64,000 bases of DNA from Promethearchaeia archaeon (GCA_029856145.1 JAHQWK010000008.1:32001-96000); one strand, 5' to 3'; numbered from the stretch's first letter, positions 42,990 through 62,998 are shown. Program-made: numbers and translations. Notes: generated by a model from the sequence alone, not told the origin.

Positions 42990-43566
42990 GTCTAAAAGTT
43001 TTATTATCCATCTACTAGATGATTAGAAAAATAATAGAGATTTAATAAATTTTTTAGAAAATTTCAATAACCAAATGCTTTAAATTTGTTATATATTATC
43101 AAAATTATAAAATTGGCGGTGCATTTTGACCACCTAATTCCCCTTATTGTGTATTTCTTCTAATCTTAGTAATTTTTTATAGGTAATTTTTTGGAACATT
43201 GAATAAAAGATAGATTTAGTGATCGAGAGCGATCAAAAACCCCCAAAATTGTTTAATTCTTTTAGTCATTTTTTTAACGATCGATTATAAAAATAATTCT
43301 GATCTATTTCAGTAATTTGGATTATTATTTTTGGATAAAAATATCTTTTTGCACTATGGATGGTCAATATTGATCGCATGGATCGAATAATGTTCATCAC
43401 ATGATCTATTTTTTCATAAATCGCTGTTTTCGAAACATAAAATGTCGAAAAGCGGTAATATTTAAATATGAAAAGTGATAATAGTATTTTAGTGATAAAT
43501 AATAATTAATAATATCAGAAGTTTTATAAAAAATTAATATACAATTTATAAGAAGTGATAAAAAAA

Positions 43567-43824
43567 ATGTGTAATAGTTGTAATTGCGACGCATATGACC
43601 AATGCTCGATAGTTGGTTACATGCCTGTTGGATTCTGTTGTACTAAATGTTATCTTTATAACGAGATGCACACGTGTTTAAAATCCACTGTGAAGGAGAA
43701 AGTGTCTAAGATTGAACCTGTGAGTGCTACGATTGAAGATGGTGTTTTAAAAGTCGTAGTTAGGAAAGATGAAAAAGAAGTTCCATTAGTGATTGACTTA
43801 GATAAACAGTTTGGCTCTGAATAG
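43567..43824 (+). CDS. Small Cys-rich protein with alpha-crystallin-like C-terminal strands
   Basis: MCNSCNCDAYDQC...FCCTKC...HTC, then VSATIEDGVLKVVVRK; ATG 43567 preferred over GTG 43555. Confidence 0.7.
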   Translation: MCNSCNCDAYDQCSIVGYMPVGFCCTKCYLYNEMHTCLKSTVKEKVSKIEPVSATIEDGVLKVVVRKDEKEVPLVIDLDKQFGSE

Positions 43825-43870: not shown

Positions 43871-43933
43871 AGAAAAAGTAAAAGGGTCAGTTCCCCAGCA
43901 AGTCCTTGAATAAAACGAGCGGGTGAGGTGAGT
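43871..43933 (+). repeat. Structured dispersed repeat, right-truncated copy
   Basis: agaaaaagtaaaagggtcagttccccagcaagtccttgaataaaacgagcgggtgaggtgagt; ends 5 bp from the ferredoxin stop. Confidence 0.9.
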
Positions 43934-43938
43934 TTCTC

Positions 43939-44160
43939 TTATTCCCATGCGGAATGATCTAAAATTGCGTTTGTTGGACACACATCTTGACACGCCATAC
44001 AATCAGTACACTCTCCAATATTCTCTGCTATGATTTTTCCATTAACTAATTTATAAACTTCTACAGGACACGCAATGATACAGTCCTCTGCACCAATGCA
44101 TCTGTCCAAGTCAATTTCAACCCAATGATCTTGATCTTCCCATTTTTTAATATTTACCAT
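43939..44160 (-). CDS. 2x[4Fe-4S] ferredoxin
   Basis: CIGAEDCIIACP (one Cys replaced) and CTDCMACQDVCP. Confidence 0.92.
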   Translation of the reverse strand: MVNIKKWEDQDHWVEIDLDRCIGAEDCIIACPVEVYKLVNGKIIAENIGECTDCMACQDVCPTNAILDHSAWE

Positions 44161-44293
44161 TTTTAGAATTCTCTTAGAATATTTAAGTTAAAATCAATTC
44201 ATTTTCTCTTTTTCTTCTTAAGGGTTGTTAAAATCTATTTAAATTTATAATTTATTCTTATTTTTCTAAAGCTTCTTTATTACCGTCGGAAAT

Positions 44294-45343
44294 CTAGTAT
44301 AAACGTAGAAAATTGAGAAATACTAATAAAAATCCTAATATAATGGTTAGTAAAAACAAATAAAAAGAATATACATTCCATTTATAGTGCCAAGTTCTTT
44401 TTTTGAGATCCCTCTTTCTTGATTTTTTGAAGCCAGTAATAGCTCCGGGTATGACAAGAATGATAGAAATTAAAGCTATTATACCATGAATAGTATAAAG
44501 TATGGCTCCTCTGTTTAAGAAGGTAGAGATAATCCAATATAAGAAAACACTTAAAGAAGTGAGAAAATAGCCAATACCAACGGTAATATGGAATTTCCTA
44601 TTTACAAATTTAGGAAGATCGTGAAAAAATTCAGTTACTGGAGACCTTTTTAATCCTGTCATAATAGCAACCCCTCCGAAAAGTAAAGAAATCGACAATA
44701 ACACAGCATGCCAAATCCAATCTGAGAAAGGTGTAATTGAAGCATCATCACTCCATCCTCGACTTTCCCAAAAACCTATATAATCATAATTTACAATCTC
44801 CATCCTAACGACCCATTTCACCCATTTATACCCTAGATGGTTTGGAGCAACAACTCTAACAGGAAATCCTTGTTCGACGGGAAGAACTTCACCATTCATT
44901 TCATATGCTAAAAGAACATTAGCCATACGTGCTTCTTCAATTGTCAAAGAGGAAGAATAATTATCTGCAGCATAAAAAACAACATCTATGGCCCCAGGTT
45001 TTACTTCCGCTAAATCTAGTAAATCCTTAACGGGAATTCCCTTCCATATTGCTGTAGCATATGGTCCATCAACACATTTTAGTGTAGCTAAAACCTCTTG
45101 TGAAGGTTGAGAAGTAAAGTTGGAATACGTAAAAGTCAAATTATTGTTGATATGTCCATTAATCGTTAATGTCCAATTATTTATCTCAATATGGGGAATT
45201 TCCCCCTTGCTTACTACAAAAAATTGATCATTAGGAGTAATAATAGCTCTACTAATTACGACTCCAGTCAATCCAATTAACGGAAGACATAACAAAATAA
45301 GAATTCCAATGTATTTTAAAAATATCTTTCTTTTTCTGTTCAT
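44294..45343 (-). CDS. Sulfite-oxidase-family molybdopterin oxidoreductase fused to a 4-TM His-containing membrane domain
   Basis: TPNDQFF, LKCVDG (Mo-ligand Cys), WKGIPV, LAYEMNGEVLPVEQGFPVR, GYKWVKWV, GFWESRGW; N-terminal anchor; four C-terminal helices each with a His. Confidence 0.88.
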   Translation of the reverse strand: MNRKRKIFLKYIGILILLCLPLIGLTGVVISRAIITPNDQFFVVSKGEIPHIEINNWTLTINGHINNNLTFTYSNFTSQPSQEVLATLKCVDGPYATAIWKGIPVKDLLDLAEVKPGAIDVVFYAADNYSSSLTIEEARMANVLLAYEMNGEVLPVEQGFPVRVVAPNHLGYKWVKWVVRMEIVNYDYIGFWESRGWSDDASITPFSDWIWHAVLLSISLLFGGVAIMTGLKRSPVTEFFHDLPKFVNRKFHITVGIGYFLTSLSVFLYWIISTFLNRGAILYTIHGIIALISIILVIPGAITGFKKSRKRDLKKRTWHYKWNVYSFYLFLLTIILGFLLVFLNFLRLY

Positions 45344-45502
45344 AGAATATTCTTCAAATCTGAAATATATAATATTTTATAAGAGAATTAAAGAGTTATG
45401 ATAATCGCTTACAATTAAATCAATTAAGATTCCCTAATTTTAAAATTTCCTTGCTATAAATTATAAGATTCATATTTAAAATTATGTATTTTAAAAAAAA
45501 TG

Positions 45503-45515
45503 AAAAGGGTCAGTT
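45503..45515 (+). repeat. Left-end remnant of the structured repeat
   Basis: aaaagggtcagtt, a 13-bp exact match to the repeat's left end, in an intergenic gap. Confidence 0.6.
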
Positions 45516-45604
45516 AATGCGGTTTTTTTTAGTAAATAAGGAAGATCTATAGTGAATTTTATTAAAATTAATACAATTAGATAATGAATAAAAATTAAAA
45601 AAAA

Positions 45605-47335
45605 TTATTTATATTTCTTATAAAATACGAGTCCTATTACTGCTATGGCTAGATATATTAGGTAATAATTACCGAAAGGAATTATATTCGGTTCTTCTTT
45701 AGCAATTCCAACTATTGCGAAAATACCCAAGTGATCTACACTGATTAGAACTTTTCCATCTCCAAGATCTATAAAATCTATTTTTTCCCACACTAAAGTA
45801 TCCATACTGAACCACCAAACTTCTATAGCCTTATATTTATTTACGTCGAAGTCAATGGTGATAGTTACAGGACCTTCCAAATTACTGGATTTGTTTATTA
45901 ATAAGTCAATGTACAGCAGACCATTTTTAAGGGATGCATATGTTGGATTATCAACCAACCCAGCAAAGAGTAAATGGGTAGCTTCAGAAACTGAAATCTC
46001 TACATTGATATCAAACTCTGTTGTACCATATGGGATGATGTTGAAATTATACCTTCCCTCGATTATTGTTGAATTTTTATAATATAAGAACCCCTGGTCA
46101 AAATTTGTTAAAGAAATACTATTATTCATGTATTTTATAATTCCATTTGGGAAATATTCTAAGTAATACACAATTTCTTGAGTTGATTTACGGATAATTT
46201 TTATCCAGTATTCACCATAAATTATCCTGTATTCTAAATCAAAATCCGGATCATACATTCTTATATTATCAAGCAGGTGATATAGATCAATACCCTTAGT
46301 TCCTTTTGGAACTAACAATGGCTGTCCACTCATGAAATATTCACCCGTCCTCATCAATAAATCTTCATTGGCAACAGCAATGGTAATATTTGAAGAGTCT
46401 AAAATCCAAGTTTCTGTTGGCCAATTCCATATAAAAATGTCTGCTCTGACTTCTTGAAATCCAGTTAATCCAAAATATGAGGATTTTGTAGAATTGATAA
46501 AGTCTATGATTTCTATTTTGTATTCCATTTTAAATAGGGATTTTCCCCCTGTATAAAAGATATCTCCAATATCTACGGCCCATTCAATGTCATCAAGAGG
46601 ATTAAAATCAAATATCCTAGTGAAATTAAGAGTAATACTATATGGAACCGTTCCTTGAATAGTAGTGTAAATTTCCCCAGTTTTTAATGTACCATTATTA
46701 TAATATTCTAATTTTACATATTCCCCGGATCCTGTACTGTTTTCAAGTAATATCGTATTAGGATCTGGAAATGATATGATTGGGGTTATATCGCCTCCTA
46801 AAAACATTATACAATCATCCTTCATTCTTTCAGCACACCATTGTATCATTAAACCATTGGTTCCATTTATTGGAATAAAAGGAGATGGGATTAGAGACAT
46901 GTAGGGATCAAATCCCAAGAAATCACCAACTCCCCCGTATGTAAAATTGACTAAAGAACAATTTACTATACCATAAGGCATTTCTTCTAATGAGTTGGTA
47001 GTTGTATTAAAAAATAAGTTTTTTAATTGGATTCCATAATAGTCGACACCAGTTCCTTTATAATTATTGAAATAAGTAATATCTGAGATATTATAGATAA
47101 CTCTAAATGGTCCAAAGAGAAGTTCAGTGCCATTATAATATCTAAGTTCCCAACCAACAACCGTACCCTCATCAAAATCCCAATAAATATTATCATTTGG
47201 AGGATCCAGAGGGGGATCGAAAGGTGTCGAAGCTACAGTATTTCTGATATTCAAATTTATCATTGAGAACAACAATATTAATGTAAATATTACTGACAAT
47301 ATTAAAACTCTATTTTTAACCATTTTGGATTTCAC
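45605..47335 (-). CDS. Secreted cell-surface glycoprotein with Loki-CTERM-like C-terminal anchor
   Basis: Signal peptide, many NxS/T sites, VDHLGIFAIVG, then IPFGNY-hydrophobic helix-KKYK. Confidence 0.85.
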   Translation of the reverse strand: MKSKMVKNRVLILSVIFTLILLFSMINLNIRNTVASTPFDPPLDPPNDNIYWDFDEGTVVGWELRYYNGTELLFGPFRVIYNISDITYFNNYKGTGVDYYGIQLKNLFFNTTTNSLEEMPYGIVNCSLVNFTYGGVGDFLGFDPYMSLIPSPFIPINGTNGLMIQWCAERMKDDCIMFLGGDITPIISFPDPNTILLENSTGSGEYVKLEYYNNGTLKTGEIYTTIQGTVPYSITLNFTRIFDFNPLDDIEWAVDIGDIFYTGGKSLFKMEYKIEIIDFINSTKSSYFGLTGFQEVRADIFIWNWPTETWILDSSNITIAVANEDLLMRTGEYFMSGQPLLVPKGTKGIDLYHLLDNIRMYDPDFDLEYRIIYGEYWIKIIRKSTQEIVYYLEYFPNGIIKYMNNSISLTNFDQGFLYYKNSTIIEGRYNFNIIPYGTTEFDINVEISVSEATHLLFAGLVDNPTYASLKNGLLYIDLLINKSSNLEGPVTITIDFDVNKYKAIEVWWFSMDTLVWEKIDFIDLGDGKVLISVDHLGIFAIVGIAKEEPNIIPFGNYYLIYLAIAVIGLVFYKKYK

Positions 47336-47500
47336 TAAATTTATTTATAAGGTATTAGGAATAATAGAATATTTAAATGTTTCTCACACCCCGAATTAAA
47401 TTGAATTTTTCATATTCCAGTAAGAAAACTGATTTCTGTTAAATTTGCTTAATTGGTACATTTTATAGTCTGAAAATTAGATTTAAATTTAACTGTTCCA

Positions 47501-47521
47501 GAAAAAGTAAAAGAGTCAGTT
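47501..47521 (+). repeat. Left-end remnant of the structured repeat
   Basis: gaaaaagtaaaagagtcagtt matches gaaaaagtaaaagggtcagtt (43872) at 20 of 21 positions. Confidence 0.75.
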
Positions 47522-47735
47522 TATTATTTACAACAAATATTTATAGTTCGATATAAAAGGTCATCTTATTAATTTTGATGATCATAAAAAAAAAAAATAA
47601 AAAAAAATTGTATCTAATAATATATTTTACCAACAAACGCTCTTTTAGCGTCAAACTGGGCCTTAACATTTTTGTAATATTCATAACCATTTTCCATTTT
47701 TTTTTCCACCATTTTTTTTGTTTAATTTTTTTTTG

Positions 47736-47891
47736 AGTGTGTATAATTTTTTATTCTCTGATCATAAAGTGTGTATTATCATATTTAAATGTTGTGGATC
47801 GAAGTGTGTATTACAAATCACAGAAAATGTGAATATTGTGAAAAGCAATGTTTTAATTATGTTCTATTATCTTTTTTAAAAGTGTGTATTA
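47736..47891 (+). repeat. Direct repeats AAGTGTGTATTA (3 exact + 1 partial)
   Basis: Exact copies at 47767, 47802 and 47880; AGTGTGTAT at 47736. Confidence 0.8.
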
Positions 47892-48098
47892 TAAAAATGA
47901 ATTACACAAAAAAATTCTTAAAAAGTCTAATAATTGCTGATTTGATTCTTTGTTTCTTTAAAAACACTCAATATTATTTTTGATAAATTGACCTATTTAG
48001 GCATTTCTTATGAAATATAAAATTGCAGAAGAAGATCGAGAGAAAAAAAATAGAAAAGAGTCTATAAAAAAGACAATAAAACATTTGGTAGTTCAATA

Positions 48099-48200
48099 TA
48101 AAGGGTCAGTTCCCCGACAAGTCCTTTAATAGAATGAGTGGGTGAGGTGAGTATTCAAAGGAATAAATCAGGGAACTGGTGGTATAATTGTGTGTTCAGT
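48099..48200 (+). repeat. Structured dispersed repeat, full copy
   Basis: aagggtcagttcccc...gggaactggtggtataattgtgtgttcag; arms CAGTTCCC/GGGAACTG. Confidence 0.95.
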
Positions 48201-48274: not shown

Positions 48275-49372
48275 TTAATATGATTTAAATTCCCATTTAT
48301 CTAAATGCATATACATCGACCTTAGAATACTTGTTGTGTATGGCTCTCCGGATATTTCTTTAATATCTAGGAAAGCTTTTGTTATGTGTTTACAGAACTT
48401 CATACTCTTCATTCTTTTATTTATATAATTAGGACAGTCATGCTTAATAATTCTATTTTTTAAATCAATAAGTAAATTGTAATCTTGTCTCGATCCTGCA
48501 ATAACACTAAAAATTGTTTCACTGTTTACCATACCCCGAGTTTTCAGTTTAACATTCTTAATTTTTCGATTTTCGCGATCTACGTCTAATCTCGAGAAAT
48601 ACGTGATTAAATCCTCAAAACATAATTCTTTTGAACTCATTAATTCAGGGATAGGCCATTTGTCAAAAAGCATGTGCCTTCCAGCGACTAAAATATTAAT
48701 CTCTCCTGCATTTATTTCTTTAAGTGCTCTTGATAGATCCCATACCGTGGACCCAACTGTGAACACATCATCTATTATTAATACATCTTTTTCTTGGAGA
48801 TCATTAACATCTATTTTGTGAACCCCTTGGATATCATTAAATCGTTCTTCTAGTGTTTTTCCTTTATTTTTTCCTGTATCTTTCAATTTAAATGTTTTTT
48901 CAATAATACTTTCTAAATTAAATCCCAATTTTTTCAATTTTTTTAAAAAGGGATTAACAAGGTAAATGCATTGATTTTTCTCGTCTCTATTATACTTAGG
49001 GGGTATCGTTATATATGCTGTATTTTCAAATAAATCAATATTTTGGGTAAAGATGTAGGATAACCCATCTGCTAACAGTTTTCCCGCATATTTTTTAAAT
49101 TTTTCTCCTTTTTTAAATTTTAAAAGAGAAATAAGTTCAGAAAGAATGTTAATCGGGATTTTATAATTACCAATTTCATAAGCATGATATATACCTAATG
49201 TTTTGACTTTGTTAAAATACCATTCCTTAACTATATCGGGTGGAAGTGAGCAATTCAAGCATAAATCTAGACCTTTTTCCACTTGATTCATACACTTTAA
49301 GCAGAAAGGTTCTTGAATTAATCTTATTGGAATTTTCCCCTCGAGATAATAGGTATCCTTAAGATTTGTCAT
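48275..49372 (-). CDS. ComF-like phosphoribosyltransferase with N-terminal double Zn ribbon and C-terminal SWIM-like finger
   Basis: CLKC..CLNC; ERFNDIQG; PRPP-binding VLIIDDVFTVGST; HDCPNY...FCKHI. Confidence 0.85.
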   Translation of the reverse strand: MTNLKDTYYLEGKIPIRLIQEPFCLKCMNQVEKGLDLCLNCSLPPDIVKEWYFNKVKTLGIYHAYEIGNYKIPINILSELISLLKFKKGEKFKKYAGKLLADGLSYIFTQNIDLFENTAYITIPPKYNRDEKNQCIYLVNPFLKKLKKLGFNLESIIEKTFKLKDTGKNKGKTLEERFNDIQGVHKIDVNDLQEKDVLIIDDVFTVGSTVWDLSRALKEINAGEINILVAGRHMLFDKWPIPELMSSKELCFEDLITYFSRLDVDRENRKIKNVKLKTRGMVNSETIFSVIAGSRQDYNLLIDLKNRIIKHDCPNYINKRMKSMKFCKHITKAFLDIKEISGEPYTTSILRSMYMHLDKWEFKSY

Positions 49373-49397: not shown

Positions 49398-50408
49398 CTA
49401 ATATTTAAAAAGATTAGTTTGAACAACTGAATCTTTTTCTTTAGATTTTATTTGCTCTCTTTCTTCATATTCGAATAAGAGCATTTCTGCTATATAATCA
49501 ACATCATTTACATTACTAATTTTAGCTCCCCCCTTCTCCTTGATGATTTTGTTAGGAACATAAGCTTGCTCACATTCTTCAATTGGTTCTACTGCGATTG
49601 CTGGTTTTCCTTGTTCATCCCCAAAGCGTAACTGCCATTGAGTTCCACTAAACTTGTTTCCTTCCACAACAATATTTCCTAACCCTAATCCGCTTGTAAT
49701 TCGGTTCCTTATCTGCAATGCGCGTTTAGTTACGCTTTTGTAAGGGAATCTTTCAGATATTAAAGCTCCATTTGTCACAAGTTCCTTCACTAGTCTTTGA
49801 TTTTCTTTAGGATAAAGATTTAATATTCCGGAGGCAATAACACCTATAGCTCTCCCCCCGTTTTCAAGAGCACTCTCTATTGCGATTGTGTCGATACCTC
49901 TTGCGAATCCGCTGACAACCGTAAATCCTAATTCTGAGAATCTTTTTGCTATTGATCTTGCCATTTCTTTTCCATATTTTGTTGGATTTCTGGAGCCAAT
50001 AATTGCAACTGCTTTAAAATCTTGAGGATTAATTTCACCTTTTATAAATATTAGTTTTGGAGGTTGCTTAAGGAATTTTAAAATGGGAGGGTATCCTGTA
50101 TCAAAATAACTGAAACATTTTATTTGATTACTTTCACAAATTCTTAAATCTTGTTCTATTCTGTTAAAAACCTTGTTACTTTTTCTTTTTCCGAATTTGG
50201 TTATTTTCTCATCAAGCCCTCTAATTTGGGCGTTAAAATTGGTTTTTAAGCTTAGAAGGAATGACTTAAACTTATTTTCAGAAAAAGAAACAATTTCATT
50301 AAAGGAAAAGTCGTTCTTCTTAATGATTTTCAGGACAGATAACGGGAGTGATACTTCTCTACTTAAAAAAATGTAATCAATTAAATTTGACTGTTCCAGA
50401 ATTATCAC
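49398..50408 (-). CDS. dprA: DNA-processing protein DprA/Smf
   Basis: YPPILK..QPPKLIFIKG, VAIIGSRNPTKYG, VVSGFARGIDT, YPKEN, RNRITSGL, VVEG. Confidence 0.93.
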   Translation of the reverse strand: MIILEQSNLIDYIFLSREVSLPLSVLKIIKKNDFSFNEIVSFSENKFKSFLLSLKTNFNAQIRGLDEKITKFGKRKSNKVFNRIEQDLRICESNQIKCFSYFDTGYPPILKFLKQPPKLIFIKGEINPQDFKAVAIIGSRNPTKYGKEMARSIAKRFSELGFTVVSGFARGIDTIAIESALENGGRAIGVIASGILNLYPKENQRLVKELVTNGALISERFPYKSVTKRALQIRNRITSGLGLGNIVVEGNKFSGTQWQLRFGDEQGKPAIAVEPIEECEQAYVPNKIIKEKGGAKISNVNDVDYIAEMLLFEYEEREQIKSKEKDSVVQTNLFKY

Positions 50409-50644: not shown

Positions 50645-50754
50645 AGAAAAGTAAAAGGGTCAGTTCCCCGACAAGTCCTTTAATAGAATGAGTAGGTGAG
50701 GTGAGTATTCGAAGGAATGAATCAGGGAACTGATGGTAGAATTGTGTGTTCAGT
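50645..50754 (+). repeat. Structured dispersed repeat, full copy
   Basis: Near-identical to 53275-53380. Confidence 0.95.
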
Positions 50755-50819
50755 AAATGTGATTTTATTAGAAAAAATAAAAGTAAGATTTTTTACGCAT
50801 TGGCTAAATTCTACATATA

Positions 50820-51878
50820 TTATTCTTTTGAAGATGGATAATCACACTTAGTAGTTGGTTTAGTTTTCAATGCCAAGCGTTCTCGTTTCCAATCTTCTAT
50901 TCCCACGACTTTAAGGTTTTTTAAGAGTTCAAGTCCCTCAAAATTTTCAACAGGATTATCCCATAAACTTAGTTCCCTTAAATTAACTAAATTCTCAACA
51001 TTTTGCGTCTGCATTATTTTATTGTTGCTTAAATCTAAGTCTTCTAATTTCCATAACGAATCTAACCCCTCAATCTCAGAAATTTTGTTTTGTGCTAAGC
51101 TCAATCGCTTTAAATTTAGCAGACTTTCCAATCCTTTTATCTTAGAAATTTCATTTGCATCCAAATACAAATATTCCAAATTCTTAAGACTTTCTAGACC
51201 TTGTATTTCTTTAATTTTATTAGCACCAAGAATTAATTCTTTTAAATTACGTAAATTCTCAAGACCTTTTATCTTAGAAATTTCATTTCTATCTAAATAC
51301 AGATATTCTAAGTTCCTGAGACTCTCTAAACCTTCTAGTTCTTTAATTTTATTAGAACTGAGAATTAATTTCTTCAAATTATTTAAATTCTCAAGACCTT
51401 TGATTTCTGTAATATTATTCTCGTGAATGTTTAAAATCTCTAATTTTCTGAGCTCCTCCAGCCCTTTTATCTCAGTAATTTCATTTTGAGTGAGAATTAA
51501 CTTTTTTAAGCTAATTAAAGTGCCAAGCCCTTCTATATTTTTGATGGGATTACCATGATAATTAGCATCTCCAAAGTATAAACCTTCTAATTTCCTAAGG
51601 TTCGCTATTCCTTCAACCTTGGTAACGTAGTTCCCACTTATGTTTAAGAATTTTAGGTCTGTAAGATTCTCAAGATTCTCAAGTTTATCAATAATATTTC
51701 CCATAAGATACAATACTTCTAAATTATTCAATGTATCCAACCCCTCAACCTCAGAAAGACTACACGGAATAGTTATAAGCTCTAACTTATTATTATGAGC
51801 AAAATATTTTTTTCCTCGAATAATAGCATACTCTTCAGAATTTTTATCTGCCATCTCCAAGATATTTTTACGAAACAT
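50820..51878 (-). CDS. Leucine-rich repeat protein (SDS22/internalin-like), paralog 1
   Basis: 22-aa repeats LxxLxLxxNxIxxIxGLxxLxx. Confidence 0.95.
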   Translation of the reverse strand: MFRKNILEMADKNSEEYAIIRGKKYFAHNNKLELITIPCSLSEVEGLDTLNNLEVLYLMGNIIDKLENLENLTDLKFLNISGNYVTKVEGIANLRKLEGLYFGDANYHGNPIKNIEGLGTLISLKKLILTQNEITEIKGLEELRKLEILNIHENNITEIKGLENLNNLKKLILSSNKIKELEGLESLRNLEYLYLDRNEISKIKGLENLRNLKELILGANKIKEIQGLESLKNLEYLYLDANEISKIKGLESLLNLKRLSLAQNKISEIEGLDSLWKLEDLDLSNNKIMQTQNVENLVNLRELSLWDNPVENFEGLELLKNLKVVGIEDWKRERLALKTKPTTKCDYPSSKE

Positions 51879-51956
51879 ACCTATATATATTTATGGGCAG
51901 TGATAACTATGAGAGTTCCATAAAAATAAAGAAATTAATTATTTCTAATATTCTTT

Positions 51957-52063
51957 AAAAAAGTAAAGGGTCAGTTCCCCGAAAAGTCCTTGAATAAAAC
52001 GAGTGGATGAGGTGAGTATTCAACGGAAAGGCGCAGGGAACTGGTGATAGAATTGTGTGTTCA
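51957..52063 (+). repeat. Structured dispersed repeat, full (diverged) copy
   Basis: Same arms; internal substitutions (ttgaata/tattcaa inner stem). Confidence 0.93.
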
Positions 52064-52126
52064 TGTTATCAAATTTAATTTTACTAGAAAAAATAAAAGT
52101 AAGATTACTTACGCATTAGCTAAATT

Positions 52127-53194
52127 TTACGTATAATATTCTTTTGAAGATGGATAATCACACTTAGTAGTTGGTTTAGTTTTCAATGCCAAACGCTCTC
52201 GTTTCCAATCTTCTATTCCCACGAATCGAAGATTTTTCAAGGAATTAAGCCCTCCAAACTCTTCAATAGGATTTTTCTCTAAAGTGATTACTTCTAAATT
52301 TGCTAAATTCTCAAGACCTTGAATTTGGGTTATGTTGTTCTCATCTAGCGCTAGACTTTCTAACTTCCATAACGAATCTAACCCCTCAATCTCAGAAATC
52401 TTGTTTTGTGTTAAACTCAATCGCTTCAAATTTAGTAGACCTTCCAACCCTTTTATCTTAGAAATTTGATTTCGTTCTAATTCTAAATGCTGCAAATTCC
52501 TGAGGTTATTTAAACCTTTGATTTCTTTAATTTTATTAGATTCAAGAACTAATTGTTTTAGATTGCTTAATTTATCAAGACCTTTGATCTCTGAAATTTT
52601 ATTCATGCCTAAATCTAATAATTCCAATTTTTTAAGGTTATCTAAACCTTTTATTTCCCTAATTTCATTAAGACCGAGATATAATTCTCTCAAATTGCTT
52701 AGTTTATCAAGACCTTTAATTTCTGTTATTTTATTTTGATCTAATTGTAAGATCTCTAAATTTCTAAGGTATTCTAACCCCTTTATCTCAAATATTTCAT
52801 TTTGAAAGAAAGAAAGCTTCTTTAAGTTGGTTAACGTGTTTAATCCTTTAATTTCTGAAATGGGATTGCCATGATTATTACCGTCTCCAAACCATAAAGT
52901 CTCTAGATTCGTTAAATTTTCTAAACCTTCGATATCAGTAATATAATTTCCACTTAAAATCAAAAGCTTTAAGTTCGTGAGGGCCTTTAGATTTTCAAGT
53001 CTCTCAATGCTATTAGTATTGAGAACCAATGTTCTTAAATTTTCTAAATTCTCGAGGCCTTCAATTTCAGAAAGACTACATGTGACATCAATGAGCTCTA
53101 ATACATTATCACAAATAAAATGTTTCTTTCCACGAATAAGAACATATTCCTCAGAATTTTTGTCTGCCATCTCTAAGATATTTTTACGAAGCAC
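52127..53194 (-). CDS. Leucine-rich repeat protein (SDS22-like), paralog 2
   Basis: Same repeat type; N-terminus and last ~28 aa nearly identical to paralog 1. Confidence 0.95.
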   Translation of the reverse strand: MLRKNILEMADKNSEEYVLIRGKKHFICDNVLELIDVTCSLSEIEGLENLENLRTLVLNTNSIERLENLKALTNLKLLILSGNYITDIEGLENLTNLETLWFGDGNNHGNPISEIKGLNTLTNLKKLSFFQNEIFEIKGLEYLRNLEILQLDQNKITEIKGLDKLSNLRELYLGLNEIREIKGLDNLKKLELLDLGMNKISEIKGLDKLSNLKQLVLESNKIKEIKGLNNLRNLQHLELERNQISKIKGLEGLLNLKRLSLTQNKISEIEGLDSLWKLESLALDENNITQIQGLENLANLEVITLEKNPIEEFGGLNSLKNLRFVGIEDWKRERLALKTKPTTKCDYPSSKEYYT

Positions 53195-53274
53195 ACCTAT
53201 ATATATTTATGGGCAGTGATAACTATGAGAATTCCATAAAAATAAGGAAATTAATCATTTCTAATATTCTTTTA

Positions 53275-53380
53275 AAAAGTAGAAGGTCAGTTCCCCGACA
53301 AGTCCTTTAATAGAATGAGTGGGTGAGGTGAGTATTCAAAGGAATGAATCAGGGAACTGATGATAGAATTGTGTGTTCAG
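53275..53380 (+). repeat. Structured dispersed repeat, full copy
   Basis: TCAGTTCCC...GGGAACTGA outer stem; TCCTTT.AATA/TATT.AAAGGA inner stem. Confidence 0.95.
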
Positions 53381-53424
53381 CTCAGTAATTTTGAATTTAC
53401 CAGAAAAAATAAAAGTAAGATTAC

Positions 53425-53691
53425 TTACGCATTAGCCAAATATTCGTTTAGCACGATGTTTAATTCTACTTCTGAGTTTTGGATCTTCTTCAACAGATTC
53501 CTCAGTCCATACTCATTTAATAGTAGCTCGATGAGATTCTTATAAACTGCGGTAATATTATCTTTACCAGCTTCATAATAAAATTTATCATCACTAAGGG
53601 TAAGATCTAAAAGATCATATAAACCTTTCAAGGCGTCCTTTATATTTTCAAAATTCCTTACTGCTTTTTCTTTCGTTTTTGAACTATTCAT
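53425..53691 (-). CDS. Hypothetical helical protein (88 aa)
   Basis: ATG with strong SD TGAGGTGAG and an upstream TTTATATA box; its C-terminal codons recur elsewhere with synonymous changes. Confidence 0.85.
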   Translation of the reverse strand: MNSSKTKEKAVRNFENIKDALKGLYDLLDLTLSDDKFYYEAGKDNITAVYKNLIELLLNEYGLRNLLKKIQNSEVELNIVLNEYLANA

Positions 53692-53722
53692 TTAACTTAC
53701 TCACCTCAATATTATTATGTAA

Positions 53723-59291: not shown

Positions 59292-59528
59292 TTAATGATG
59301 AATAGGGCGTCCTTTCTTATGGATAGATTTACCTACTACAGCTTCACTACCTTCGAGTACCATTTCTGAAATTGTAGGGTGGCTATGGATGGTCTCTCCA
59401 ATATCATGAATGGTTAACCCATGTTGCATTGCTAGTGCTATTTCAGCTATCAATTCGGGGGCTTCAGTTCCAATACAGGAAGCACCGAGAATTTTATGTG
59501 TAGTTTTATCAGCAAGAACCATAAAGAA
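59292..59528 (-). pseudogene. Duplicated 3' end of lpdA (copy 2)
   Basis: FFMVLADKTTHKILGASCIG...HSHPTISEM...GRPIHH* aligns to the last ~78 aa of 61517..62998. Confidence 0.93.
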
Positions 59529-59695
59529 CAAATATCAGATTTCAAAATTCAAGGCCTTCAAACTTTTCAATAGGATTTGAAATCAAATTTCCCCTTAAAT
59601 TTAGTCTTTTTAAATTTATATTTGAATCAACGCTTTTATCTTTGAAATCTCATTTCAATTATATTAACAATTAATATGATAAAAAAGAAAAAAAG

Positions 59696-60750: not shown

Positions 60751-60987
60751 TTATTGATGAATAGGACGTCCTTTTTTGTGTATAGCTTTTCCTACAACCG
60801 ATTCTGCTGCTTCAAGTACCATCTCCGAAATGGTCGGATGAGAGTGAATTGTCTCTGCAATGTCATGTATCGTTAACCCATGTTGCATTGCTAATGCTAT
60901 TTCAGCTATCAATTCGGGGGCTTCAGTTCCAATACAAGATGCTCCTAAGATTTTATGGGAGCTTTTATCAGCTAAAATCATTAAGAA
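60751..60987 (-). pseudogene. Duplicated 3' end of lpdA (copy 1)
   Basis: FLMILADKSSHKILGASCIG...GRPIHQ*; same 5' breakpoint as copy 2. Confidence 0.93.
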
Positions 60988-60989
60988 AC

Positions 60990-61019
60990 GTTCTTAATGA
61001 ATATTTAGCAAATGCGTAA
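60990..61019 (+). pseudogene. 3' remnant of the 88-aa gene (inverted)
   Basis: GTT CTT AAT GAA TAT TTA GCA AAT GCG TAA = VLNEYLANA*, identical in protein to the end of 53425..53691. Confidence 0.85.
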
Positions 61020-61072
61020 GAATCCTTTTTTCTGATTTTACATTTTCTCTTAAATTTAATTTAATGCCCTAA

Positions 61073-61176
61073 ACTGAACACACAATTCTATCATCAGTTC
61101 CCTGATTCATTCCTTTGAATACTCACCTCACACACTCATTTTATTCAAGGGTTTGCCGGGGAACTGACCCTTTTAC
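61073..61176 (-). repeat. Structured dispersed repeat, full copy, inverted
   Basis: Reverse complement of the 53275 copy; its GTAAAAGGG end overlaps the TAA of 61173..61409. Confidence 0.95.
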
Positions 61177-61409
61177 CTTAATTTGTAAAATCTTTTACCA
61201 TCTTTAATTTCCGTTTCGACTAAACCCTGTTTTTCTAACATCCTTAATTTAAAATTCACATAATAGTAATCCATGGTATCTTTAGCTTCTTTTAGGTTAA
61301 ATATAATATCGTTTACACTTTGAAATTCCCTAGTTAAAGATTTTAAAATAATTTCTTCTGTAACTATTTCTATATCAGATTCTTGGTGAAGATTTTTAAC
61401 TTTCTTCAT
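61173..61409 (-). CDS. Small winged-helix-like protein
   Basis: ILKSL...SVNDII...KLRMLEKQGLVETEIKDGKRFYKL wing motif. Confidence 0.7.
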   Translation of the reverse strand: MKKVKNLHQESDIEIVTEEIILKSLTREFQSVNDIIFNLKEAKDTMDYYYVNFKLRMLEKQGLVETEIKDGKRFYKLR

Positions 61410-61516: not shown

Positions 61517-62998
61517 TTAATGATGAATAGGGCGTCCTTTCTTATGGATAGATTTGCCGACTACGGCTTCACAACCTTCCAGTACTAATTCTGAAATTGT
61601 GGGATGACTGTGAATCGTTTCTGTTACCTCGTGAATGGTTAGACCATGTTTCATCGCTAAAGCTATTTCTGCTATTAATTCGGAGGCTTCAGCTCCGATA
61701 CAAGATGCACCGAGAATTTTATGTGTAGTTTTATCAGCCAGTACCATAATGAAACCTTCTTCTTCTCCCATACATTTAGCTTTACTGAGTGATTGATATG
61801 GAAATTGTCCCATTAACACATCAAAACCCAGATTCTTTGCTATCTTCCTTCTATATCCAACAGAACCGATATTAGGAGAAGTAAAAATGGTTGCTGGTAC
61901 GACAGTATAATCTGTTTTCATTTCTTCTGAAGGAAAACCTCCAATACTTGTTAAGGAATTAGCTACCGCAACATCTGCTTCGTGATAAGCAACATGAGCA
62001 AGCATAATTCCACCCGTCACATCACCTATTGCGTATACTCCCTTCACTGCGGTTTCTAAAGTTTTCGGATTTACTTTAATAGCTCCTCTTTCTGTTTCAA
62101 TACCTACCACCTCAAGTCCTATATTTTTGGATTCTTTTGCACGTCCTATTGATACTAAGCACAAATCTGCTTCAAATATATCTTTTTCAGCATTTTCTGT
62201 TTGATCACGAGGAACATCAGCGGAACAAGTTGTCGCCTTTACACCATTTCCTGTATTTTCTACAGATAGCACGTTTTTTGCTGTATGAATATCTATGCCA
62301 AGATTTTCAAATTTTTTTTGAAGTACTTTAACAATCATTGGTTCTTCAGTAGCAATAGGAGAGGAAAGATATTCTAACATAGTAACCTTACTTCCAAAAG
62401 TTGCAAAGATATTAGCAAATTCACAACCTATAACTCCAGCACCTATAATTAATAATCGTTTTGGAATTATCTTAAAATTAGGATCTAGAATATCGTCACT
62501 CGTTAAAATTCTTTCATGATCGATATTGAAAGCAGGAATTAAAGCTGGAGATGATCCAGTAGCAATAATTATTCTTTTTGCTTTAATAGTTGTATTTTTT
62601 TCACCTTCAATTGAGATTTCGAATCCAGTATCAATATTTCCTCCGATTATCTTCCCAAATCCATTATAAATATCGTTTTTCCAACCCTTCTCTAAAGCTT
62701 CAATTCCATCTACTAATTCTTTTACCACCTGATTTTTCCGTTCTACAGCTTTAGAAAAAGAGAGTTTGAAATCAGAAACTTCTATTCCAAATTCATCAGC
62801 TTCTTTAATTTTTTCGATTAAATGAGAAGATGCATATAAAGCTTTTGTAGGAATACAACCTCTATTAAGACATGTACCTCCCAGTTTATCTTTTTCAATT
62901 AAAGCAACTTTTGCACCGTATTGTGCCGCTCTAATAGCTGAATGATAGCCTCCAGGCCCTGCTCCGATAATAGCTAAATCATATTGGTTTTCACTCAT
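61517..62998 (-). CDS. lpdA: Dihydrolipoamide dehydrogenase
   Basis: GAGPGGY, GGTCLNRGCIPTK, ATGS, GAGVIGCE, AIGDV, MLAH, HSHPTISE. Confidence 0.97.
   Translation of the reverse strand: MSENQYDLAIIGAGPGGYHSAIRAAQYGAKVALIEKDKLGGTCLNRGCIPTKALYASSHLIEKIKEADEFGIEVSDFKLSFSKAVERKNQVVKELVDGIEALEKGWKNDIYNGFGKIIGGNIDTGFEISIEGEKNTTIKAKRIIIATGSSPALIPAFNIDHERILTSDDILDPNFKIIPKRLLIIGAGVIGCEFANIFATFGSKVTMLEYLSSPIATEEPMIVKVLQKKFENLGIDIHTAKNVLSVENTGNGVKATTCSADVPRDQTENAEKDIFEADLCLVSIGRAKESKNIGLEVVGIETERGAIKVNPKTLETAVKGVYAIGDVTGGIMLAHVAYHEADVAVANSLTSIGGFPSEEMKTDYTVVPATIFTSPNIGSVGYRRKIAKNLGFDVLMGQFPYQSLSKAKCMGEEEGFIMVLADKTTHKILGASCIGAEASELIAEIALAMKHGLTIHEVTETIHSHPTISELVLEGCEAVVGKSIHKKGRPIHH

Follow-up and report, generated by a model that had tools for sequence, protein, structure and literature searches.

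Duplicated anchor-gene ends at an island hotspot in Lokiarchaeia and a hairpin loop that covaries with the ribosome-binding site of the anchor gene

A 64,000-nt stretch of a Promethearchaeia archaeon genome (GCA_029856145.1, JAHQWK010000008.1:32001-96000; here called the window) carries p88, a gene for an 88-amino-acid (aa) protein, followed by several copies of a module that consists of the p88 tail, its T-rich 3' untranslated region (UTR), and a hairpin of about 90 nt. No known family fits this locus, which behaves like an island hotspot driven by recombination, with the ends of its anchor duplicated, and the hairpin loop is complementary to the ribosome-binding site (RBS) of p88 itself. Across genomes the locus has a recognizable anatomy, a probably ancestral empty site, recurrent gene-end duplications with different breakpoints, heterogeneous cargo, and a loop-to-RBS complementarity that covaries. 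Taken as a whole, the reading that duplicative recombination at the 3' module of p88 makes the hotspot, and that the hairpin is an anti-RBS RNA, is one we hold with slightly better than even confidence.

How Asgard archaea acquire and organize foreign genes is poorly known, and viruses, tRNA-targeting elements, and transposons are the Asgard mobile elements on record to date (PMC8813620, PMC11529989). The locus reported here is a defined hotspot with empty and filled states over about 25 species-level genomes, with cargo resembling defense and sensing genes and with no recombinase found in that cargo, which makes a route of gene gain testable. No description of the hairpin or of the hotspot was found in the literature; the hairpin is previously unrecorded, and both its loop-to-RBS complementarity and its standing as an RNA element are new.

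A variable island between p88 and a conserved distal flank

A covariance model of the hairpin (R1) was used to scan 54 genomes of the genus, 32 of one sister genus, and 19 other genera of the order. Matches occurred in 24 of the 54 and 3 of the 32, with none in the other genera sampled. Genomes with the hairpin hold one to five copies, mostly clustered on one contig, and the hairpin adjoins p88 wherever it was mapped. The conserved backbone runs from an lpdA-like gene through p88 and the hairpin to a conserved flank of about 55 bp and then to g89, a convergent gene for a Cys-rich 89-aa protein. The distal flank is conserved in at least 20 loci, and g89 (71-91% identity by tblastn in 17 other loci) always adjoins the last hairpin copy.

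An empty site, consisting of this backbone with a single hairpin, is present in four genomes (G033 and, from the sister genus, G083, G101, and G119), which the initial annotation had proposed to look for; because it occurs in the sister genus, empty is likely the ancestral state. Contiguous filled islands between p88 and g89 were recovered from 13 genomes and span 0.4 to about 16.6 kb. All 13 have one hairpin copy beside p88 and another beside the flank and g89, and copies frequently also lie between the modules inside. Surveying what follows p88 orthologs in other Lokiarchaeia/Promethearchaeota genomes revealed variable cargo there too, which supports the earlier idea of an insertion hotspot at the p88 3' end that keeps the gene whole; distal remnants of the gene occur in G007, G061, and G062 as well. 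The p88-hairpin pair of four genomes (G010, G028, G016, and G006) is inverted relative to lpdA and g89. In these closest relatives of the window an opposite-orientation hairpin adjoins g89 (L031 in G010, L033/L057 in G028, L030/L058 in G016, and L032/L056 in G006), and the inverted pair is as would be expected from inversion between inverted hairpin copies.

Cargo was surveyed as 87 open reading frames (ORFs) from 21 islands, 51 of which are singletons with no relative in any other island. The only cargo family found in several genomes is a leucine-rich repeat (LRR) protein, with 7 genes in 5 genomes; the remainder includes Ank-TIR and SIR2-TPR proteins, a DprA/SLOG protein with a ComF-like phosphoribosyltransferase (PRTase), GNAT and MarR-type proteins, a ferredoxin, a molybdopterin oxidoreductase, and a DUF401 protein. 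Cargo orientation is uniform in the window and mixed in other genomes. No recombinase recurs in the cargo, and no integrase family appears among the 25 of 113 families listed for the 87 ORFs. The element-borne integrase typical of an integrative element at a gene 3' end was absent from the islands examined. Phage_integrase (PF00589) has no match anywhere in G000, the assembly containing the window (3.55 Mb, 97% complete), which is probably an assembly gap. In G023, G064, G001, G062, and G036, PF00589 matches lie only on contigs other than that of the island; one XerA-like or XerA-sized gene of this family (311-315 aa) is present in each of five relatives.

A whole-assembly search placed all module copies of G000 in one 18-kb stretch. 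A pattern search of the window for TTRGCNAATGCGTAA, the LANA-stop pattern, gave four matches, at 50793-50807, 52109-52123, and 53425-53439 on the minus strand and at 61005-61019 on the plus strand, against 0.00 expected from 100 shuffles of the window. The three direct copies are the true p88 end and one orphan behind each of two LRR genes, and the fourth is inverted. Alignment places the LANA-stop, 3' UTR, and hairpin behind each LRR stop in register with the region behind p88, which bears out the initial annotation on this point, and the orphan codons form the 5' edge of the repeated module. The features of this part of the window are as follows.

53425-53691, minus strand: p88, the 88-aa anchor gene (ORF; predicted helical protein)
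53279-53439, minus strand: X3, the true last five codons of p88 (LANA-stop), 3' UTR, and hairpin (core 53279-53365; R1 91.5 bits)
53195-53273, minus strand: TATA-like promoter region belonging to LRR2
52127-53194, minus strand: LRR2 cassette gene, 355 aa (Pfam LRR_4, E = 2.7e-50)
51963-52123, minus strand: X2, orphan LANA-stop (52109-52123), UTR, and hairpin (51963-52049; R1 91.3 bits)
50820-51878, minus strand: LRR1 cassette gene, 352 aa (protein 65% identical to LRR2)
50652-50807, minus strand: X1, orphan LANA-stop (50793-50807), UTR, and hairpin (50652-50738; R1 87.7 bits)

The LRR units are arranged in tandem (2.12 units, period 1311-1316 bp) and are 78% identical over 1489 nt. Both orphans have an identical junction with the end of the LRR gene, and the UTRs of X1 to X3 are mutual nearest relatives; the common junction and these closest UTRs indicate a single junction event followed by duplication of the unit, not two arrivals. 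The units are mosaic, with 93-97% identity in the promoter and N terminus and again over the final ~75 nt of the gene together with the junction, 60-75% in the repeat region of the gene, and 78-87% in the hairpin region. Such a mosaic (50780-53460) is as expected from end conversion or from diversifying change in the repeats. LRR1, LRR2, and the LRR protein of G062 fall into one clade without further resolution, and the G062 protein matches LRR2 at its N terminus and neither LRR1 nor LRR2 at its C terminus.

The initial annotation listed several of these repeat copies, all of which are real, and its list was incomplete, since X0, X-1, and two vestiges can be added to it. Each minus-strand cargo block from p88 down to 43.9 kb terminates in a hairpin copy or vestige.

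48098-48184, minus strand: X0, hairpin alone, behind the DprA/ComF pair and lacking any gene-tail remnant (R1 94.4 bits)
~47500-47525 and ~45498-45520, minus strand: two ~20-nt vestiges of the hairpin 3' end plus T-run (read from the sequence)
43879-43933, minus strand: X-1, distal 5'-cut hairpin copy abutting the ferredoxin gene, followed by the genus-conserved flank (R1 27.4 bits)
43555-43824, plus strand: g89, the conserved distal island border (no Pfam match)

A defined crossover inside the p88 coding sequence had been proposed, and the breakpoints do not agree with it. Orphan p88 tails measure 15 nt in X1 and X2 of the window (codon -5, the same junction), 30 nt in X4 (codon -10), 42 nt or 14 codons in G062 (IDLNIVLNEYLANA and stop, about 70 nt behind an LRR gene), 63 nt or 21 codons in G007 (within a flanking repeat of 204 nt at 94.6% identity), and 84 nt or 28 codons in G061, where there are two differences, both synonymous, and a changed stop codon. 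Many hairpin copies have no coding remnant at all and start in the UTR, about 10-22 nt before the stem, or within the hairpin; X0 begins about 22 nt before the stem, and the G036 repeat (102 nt, 98% identity) begins 10 nt before it. Distal copies beside g89 lack the 5' arm in G004, G026, G030, G007, G013, G023, and G036 and in X-1 of the window. The 3' edges vary as well, reaching between +3 and about +35 nt into the conserved flank, and what all copies have in common is the 3' half of the hairpin. Because the remnant starts differ and the hairpin is constant, the constant element is the hairpin and not a crossover site in the coding sequence; aligned with one another, the breakpoints are mutually unrelated, which favors the hairpin module as the recombining unit.

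Two further kinds of evidence point to exchange. In G007 and G061 duplicated borders surround cargo that is itself unduplicated, and this single cargo marks them as insertions and not tandem duplications. The distal hairpin of G064 is chimeric, its leader and 5' half being of the type seen in the window and its 3' half of the G004 type, the switch lying in the conserved core, which points to recombination between diverged lineages inside the hairpin. X0, X1, and X3 differ in their surroundings and yet have hairpins that are 95-97% alike, and gene conversion among hairpin copies seems likely. At L052:5795-5884 in G062, ~40-50 nt are missing from the 5' arm of an inner hairpin copy; on either side of the gap stands one of two similar TTGA(A/T)TAC words, TTGAATAC, which lie in the leader and loop stem of the intact copy, and the loss looks like slippage between short repeats.

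Duplicated gene ends are also found on the other side of p88, around the lpdA-like gene.

60990-61175, plus strand: X4, inverted stub VLNEYLANA-stop (60990-61019), UTR, and hairpin (61089-61175; R1 96.8 bits)
61173-61409: 78-aa gene, convergent with and abutting X4
61517-62998, minus strand: intact lpdA-like pyridine-nucleotide disulphide oxidoreductase gene, the conserved upstream neighbor of p88 (Pfam, synteny)
60751-60993 and 59292-59531, minus strand: two orphan 3' ends of the lpdA-like gene (Pfam Pyr_redox_dim)

The inverted VLNEYLANA-stop with synonymous changes was correctly recognized by the initial annotation: it differs from the p88 end at 5 of 30 bases, all in third positions and all synonymous, which fits two alleles that would have diverged as working genes. 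Its assignment to the same array did not hold. The X4 UTR (with two small insertions), hairpin, and GCA codon match the G006/G028 type, and X0 to X3 resemble G010 and G062; X4 also has the orientation towards lpdA that is seen for the intact p88-hairpin pair of G006, G016, and G028. Its type and orientation identify X4 as what is left of a second p88-hairpin module resident here, truncated near codon -10 and lying outside the LRR array.

The two lpdA orphans, with a hexapeptide-transferase gene between them, are in-frame copies of the last ~79 codons (88% and 80% by tblastn to residues 414-493) and begin at the same codon; both are followed by a common flank of ~100 bp that the intact gene lacks. 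Orphans of other genomes measure 67, 58, ~18, and ~15 codons. In identity the window orphans stand no nearer to the resident tail (83.5% and 75%) than to those of 12 other species (72-85%), and they have no close relative among 13 genomes, while the resident tail tracks the rest of its gene, with G006 closest for both parts. Compared with intact genes, the orphans show omega values of 0.07-0.10 at dS of 0.8-1.8, the same range as true orthologs. Such low omega argues that they did not decay in place and that the divergence arose within working genes that were later brought together. Duplicated ends thus keep their coding character, as seen in the lpdA omega values and in the synonymous differences of X4 (5 of 5) and G061 (2 of 2). 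These comparisons suggest that the orphan and not the intact lpdA end is the foreign piece, and they support exchange between lineages. They also speak against the earlier proposal that incoming DNA restores the gene and pushes the old end downstream: the lpdA orphan looks foreign, and in a single crossover the 5' edge of the orphan would derive from the incoming molecule. One lpdA orphan and X4 meet head to head at 60976-60996, where an inverted repeat of 9 bp, perfect and with a spacer of 3 nt, CATTAAGAA-ACG-TTCTTAATG, suggests a microhomology or fold-back junction.

The hairpin and its predicted target

On its sense strand, which is that of p88, the hairpin has an 11-bp outer stem, an 8-bp inner stem, and a loop of ~30 nt. 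The sense strand folds at -27.3 kcal/mol (z = -6.1), compared with z = -1.9 for the antisense strand. Stem pairs in 35 distinct strong copies comprise 591 Watson-Crick, 31 G.U, and 14 A.C pairs, and the excess of G.U over A.C mildly favors the sense strand. Copies are 73% identical per column across genomes and invariant in the loop; when 53 copies were aligned to the model, only isolated compensatory pairs came to light. An Rfam search of 49-64 kb returned only EBv-sisRNA-1 at chance level (E = 0.73).

Read as its reverse complement, the invariant loop sequence AUACUCACCUCA gives UUGAGGUGAGUAAG, which is the Shine-Dalgarno region of p88 and lies 8-9 nt ahead of the start codon. A genome-wide count of the 11-mer TGAGGTGAGTA found six occurrences, one at the p88 RBS and five, on the opposite strand, in hairpin loops, and none for the reversed 11-mer that served as a control. 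The loop is complementary to the p88 RBS in all 39 ortholog loci with a hairpin in reach (complement of 11-13 nt), with predicted duplexes of 10-12 bp at -15 to -19 kcal/mol. Changes on one side are matched on the other, and none of the 39 loci has a disruptive combination.

53698-53708, minus strand: Shine-Dalgarno region of p88, UGAGGUGAGUA, the loop target (11-mer count, covariation)
31 loci: RBS UGAGG, loop CCUCA, Watson-Crick
5 loci: RBS UAAGG, loop CCUUA, compensated (RBS G to A with loop C to U)
2 loci: RBS UGAGG, loop CCUUA, G.U intermediate
1 locus (G033): RBS GAGCA, loop GCUCA, compensated (RBS U to C with loop A to G) plus one G.U

Pairing with the translation start region of the target has therefore been kept in evolution, as is expected of a regulatory RNA. 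We conclude that the hairpin is, as predicted from these alignments, an RNA that pairs with the p88 RBS; most likely it would throttle p88 translation, either in cis as part of the 3' UTR or in trans as a small RNA. It would provide a concrete handle on post-transcriptional control in Lokiarchaeia, with a 3'-encoded loop and the RBS of its own gene as the predicted target, and this target, both specific and covarying, was identified by sequence comparison alone.

The anchor gene itself has no Pfam or NCBIfam match, and the ESM Atlas is empty for it as well. Its AlphaFold model (pLDDT 88) shows a helical hairpin and a third helix with a floppy tail at residues 72-88, and a Foldseek search of the model against PDB gave no match at E <= 0.001. 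Orthologs (67-94% identity), all annotated as hypothetical, occur only in Lokiarchaeota/Promethearchaeota metagenome-assembled genomes. Distant paralogs from metagenome loci (38-56% identity) have no downstream complement to their own RBS, which restricts the hairpin to the p88 ortholog group. One public contig (53343-53689) runs over p88 and past the T-run into the hairpin at a depth of 22.7, where depth elsewhere in the run is at most 9; the run is labeled metatranscriptomic and flagged as probably DNA, and it was not used as evidence.

Mechanism, alternatives, and known systems

Under the reading that we favor, the ~55 bp between the hairpin and g89 would be an insertion hotspot, and insertion would always be accompanied by duplication of the hairpin plus a variable amount of neighboring sequence. 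This could come about by a single (Campbell-type) crossover between the resident module and a copy on incoming circular or circularized DNA, or by unequal or illegitimate exchange between alleles or chromosome copies. Unit duplication, small deletions, and inversions between oppositely oriented hairpin copies would follow. For the window, one junction event would have fused the end of the LRR cassette to codon -5 of the p88 tail, and the unit would later have been duplicated. Selection that keeps p88 joined to its silencer may explain why only duplicative insertions survive. We infer that recombination is driven by homology rather than directed by an enzyme. General recombination fits better because the edges vary on both sides, the repeats are 80-98% identical over 100-230 nt, and there are chimeras, and also because of the later unit duplication, small deletions, and inversions between hairpin copies. 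A further step appears improbable to us, namely that p88 and the hairpin complementary to its RBS act as a gatekeeper or addiction-like pair, with the hairpin serving at the same time as the joint of a cassette platform that needs no integrase. If it were true, units of cargo plus hairpin would excise and insert through the hairpin and each would add an RNA copy that silences p88, so that gain and retention of cargo would be coupled to the control of p88.

Several points weigh against our preferred interpretation. Hairpin copies are more alike within genomes than between them, and gene conversion may have redrawn the repeat edges, in which case the original breakpoints possibly differ from those listed above. 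If the hairpin was duplicated once, long ago, and cargo was then exchanged through flanking homology, a copy at both ends would be explained with no need for repeated insertion; recurrence of duplicative insertion is read solely from the differing gene-tail remnants, and the LRR junctions of the window and of G062 could stem from a single event and a deletion. Public contigs are interrupted at the repeats and joined there unreliably, which leaves the unit order to the assembly alone: in four metagenome runs all joints at the repeats have short sides (20-29 nt) and are untrustworthy, so the contigs of these runs do not show an empty or single-unit form within the species. Nor was a recombination intermediate, circle, or population variant seen in public contigs. 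Unitigs identical to the window do occur in metagenome runs of three studies, and the window sequence is therefore not a one-off artefact. As for the RNA, stem covariation did not rise above that of shuffles, the stems being too conserved, so that the evidence for the fold is its conservation and its energy; in principle, one DNA-binding protein that reads both sites could account for the loop/RBS covariation.

The initial annotation pictured incoming DNA that recombines into the p88 3' end, and in its strict form this would be a mobile element that integrates site-specifically in the last codons of p88, carries a replacement end, and displaces the native end downstream. Orphan ends that differ mostly or only synonymously (X4, G061, and the lpdA omega of about 0.1), two window lpdA orphans starting at the same codon, and module boundaries that resemble serial integrations are all as such an element would leave them. 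We nevertheless judge it improbable, because the p88 remnants start at -5, -10, -14, -21, and -28 in independent cases where a fixed crossover would give one position, many copies have no coding remnant, and the lengths of the lpdA orphans vary too (79, 67, 58, ~18, and ~15 codons). The islands examined and G000 also lack an integrase, the PF00589 genes of relatives lie on other contigs, the repeats are 80-98% alike over 100-230 nt with no short identical core, and the X1 to X3 UTRs are one another's nearest relatives. This last observation, together with the 2.12 tandem units of 1316 bp, the single junction of the LRR orphans, and the common clade of LRR1, LRR2, and the G062 LRR, is what would be expected if segmental duplication in place, unequal crossing-over, and differential loss of cargo had built the array without incoming DNA. 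Head-to-tail units with their cargo were found for the two LRR units only, however. The other modules between hairpin copies are mutually unrelated and 51 of 87 ORFs are singletons, G007 and G061 hold unduplicated cargo inside duplicated borders, the sister genus has a single-copy empty site, G064 has a chimeric distal hairpin, and the lpdA orphans look foreign; as an account of the locus as a whole, in-place duplication is quite unlikely.

If the hairpin were instead the attachment site of an integron-like cassette system with a putative recombinase, the tail remnants would be incidental. The array does have the form of a platform gene and hairpin followed by repeated units of cargo and hairpin, its cargo is co-oriented in the window, and the G036 repeat is the hairpin alone (102 nt, 98%). 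Many distal copies also switch to hairpin sequence near model positions 28-30, beside the invariant core, and the G064 chimera switches at that place as well. These 5'-cut copies, however, stand at the same place beside g89 in related genomes and may go back to one inherited variant. No enzyme that could be a candidate is conserved together with the array, the neighbors p88, lpdA, and g89 are unlike recombinases, and cargo in other genomes points both ways. Conservation of the hairpin extends to its sequence and is not one of structure alone, RYYYAAC/GTTRRRY ends are absent by reading, and the conservation of the loop is already accounted for by the RBS pairing, all of which leaves this system a minor possibility. 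Very improbable, finally, are 5'-truncated retro-copies of the p88 transcript 3' end, to which a common end near the T-run and 5' starts nested between -84 nt in the coding sequence and the interior of the hairpin might have pointed. The copies are undispersed at one locus, mostly direct, and located at module borders, their 3' edges vary too (up to about +35 nt), poly-A tracts and target duplications are absent, and no reverse transcriptase was linked to the locus (no genome-wide search was made). Transposable elements, including miniature inverted-repeat ones, do not describe the locus either: the copies are confined to one locus per genome, where such elements, with their terminal inverted repeats and target duplications, would be dispersed, and the edge alignment revealed no flanking duplications at hairpin copies.

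Known systems resemble parts of this arrangement. Phage 21 and e14 at icd, islands at tRNA genes, and tycheposons integrate at the 3' end of a gene and bring a replacement end. Our locus has in common with them the gene 3' ends at module borders, differences that are largely synonymous, and serial stacking at the anchor; it differs in having no integrase, fixed crossover, or short core and a repeat of 100-230 nt with variable edges, and the essential part of its anchor is a regulatory hairpin and not a tRNA. A tRNA or tmRNA gene does not anchor it, and ARAGORN found neither within 43000-63500. As in integrons and clusters of attC sites lacking integrases (CALINs), a platform is followed by cargo units that each end in an imperfect hairpin and are co-oriented in the window. 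Unlike them, the locus has no IntI and no attC core motifs: no IntI-type tyrosine recombinase lies beside the array, and the stem arms CAGTTCCCTGA and TCAGGGAACTG do not, by reading, fit attC cores. The hairpin here is conserved in sequence and has an RNA target, the cassettes have their own promoters, and orientation is mixed in relatives.

Minimal mobile elements of Neisseria and the defense hotspots of Escherichia coli and Pseudomonas are flanked by core genes and exchanged by homologous recombination. Conserved flanks, some empty sites, unrelated and often defense-like cargo, and the lack of a dedicated recombinase are shared with these hotspots. Here, however, the 3' module of the left flank is duplicated at the far border and between modules, with some coding remnants, and simple flank-to-flank replacement therefore does not account for the pattern. 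RNA regulators that mask an RBS include type I antitoxin RNAs and the 3'-to-5' fold-back of hok mRNA. The hairpin is like them a stable stem-loop with a loop complementary to the Shine-Dalgarno region of a small neighboring gene, but it lies downstream on the same strand without overlapping the gene, and its complement is only 11-13 nt. Compared with type I toxins, p88 is a predicted soluble helical protein and not a short hydrophobic one, its host is an Asgard archaeon, and the hairpin has no Rfam match.

Cargo genes and other features of the window

The remaining minus-strand cargo of the window lies between X1 and g89.

49398-50408, minus strand: DprA/SLOG-like gene (Pfam DNA_processg_A, E = 4e-54)
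48275-49372, minus strand: ComF/PRTase-like gene (NCBIfam comF, E = 3.8e-11, under the curated cut-off)
43939-47335, minus strand: 576-aa protein of no known kind, molybdopterin oxidoreductase with a cytochrome-b-like domain, and 73-aa ferredoxin (Pfam)

The DprA/SLOG-like and ComF-like PRTase genes form a two-gene module bracketed by hairpin copies and could be a defense-type pair or related to DNA uptake. Ank-TIR and SIR2-TPR cargo was seen in relatives (L038:3583-4833, L034:8184-10310, L054:1332-3455, and L049:12620-13870), and from these genes the hotspot looks like a defense island. A scan for bacterial-type promoters and terminators stayed at chance level. Between a hairpin vestige and X0, positions 47540-48080 form a gene-free region of ~550 bp that is extremely A/T-rich with long homopolymer runs, and small indels and variants of it occur in public contigs.

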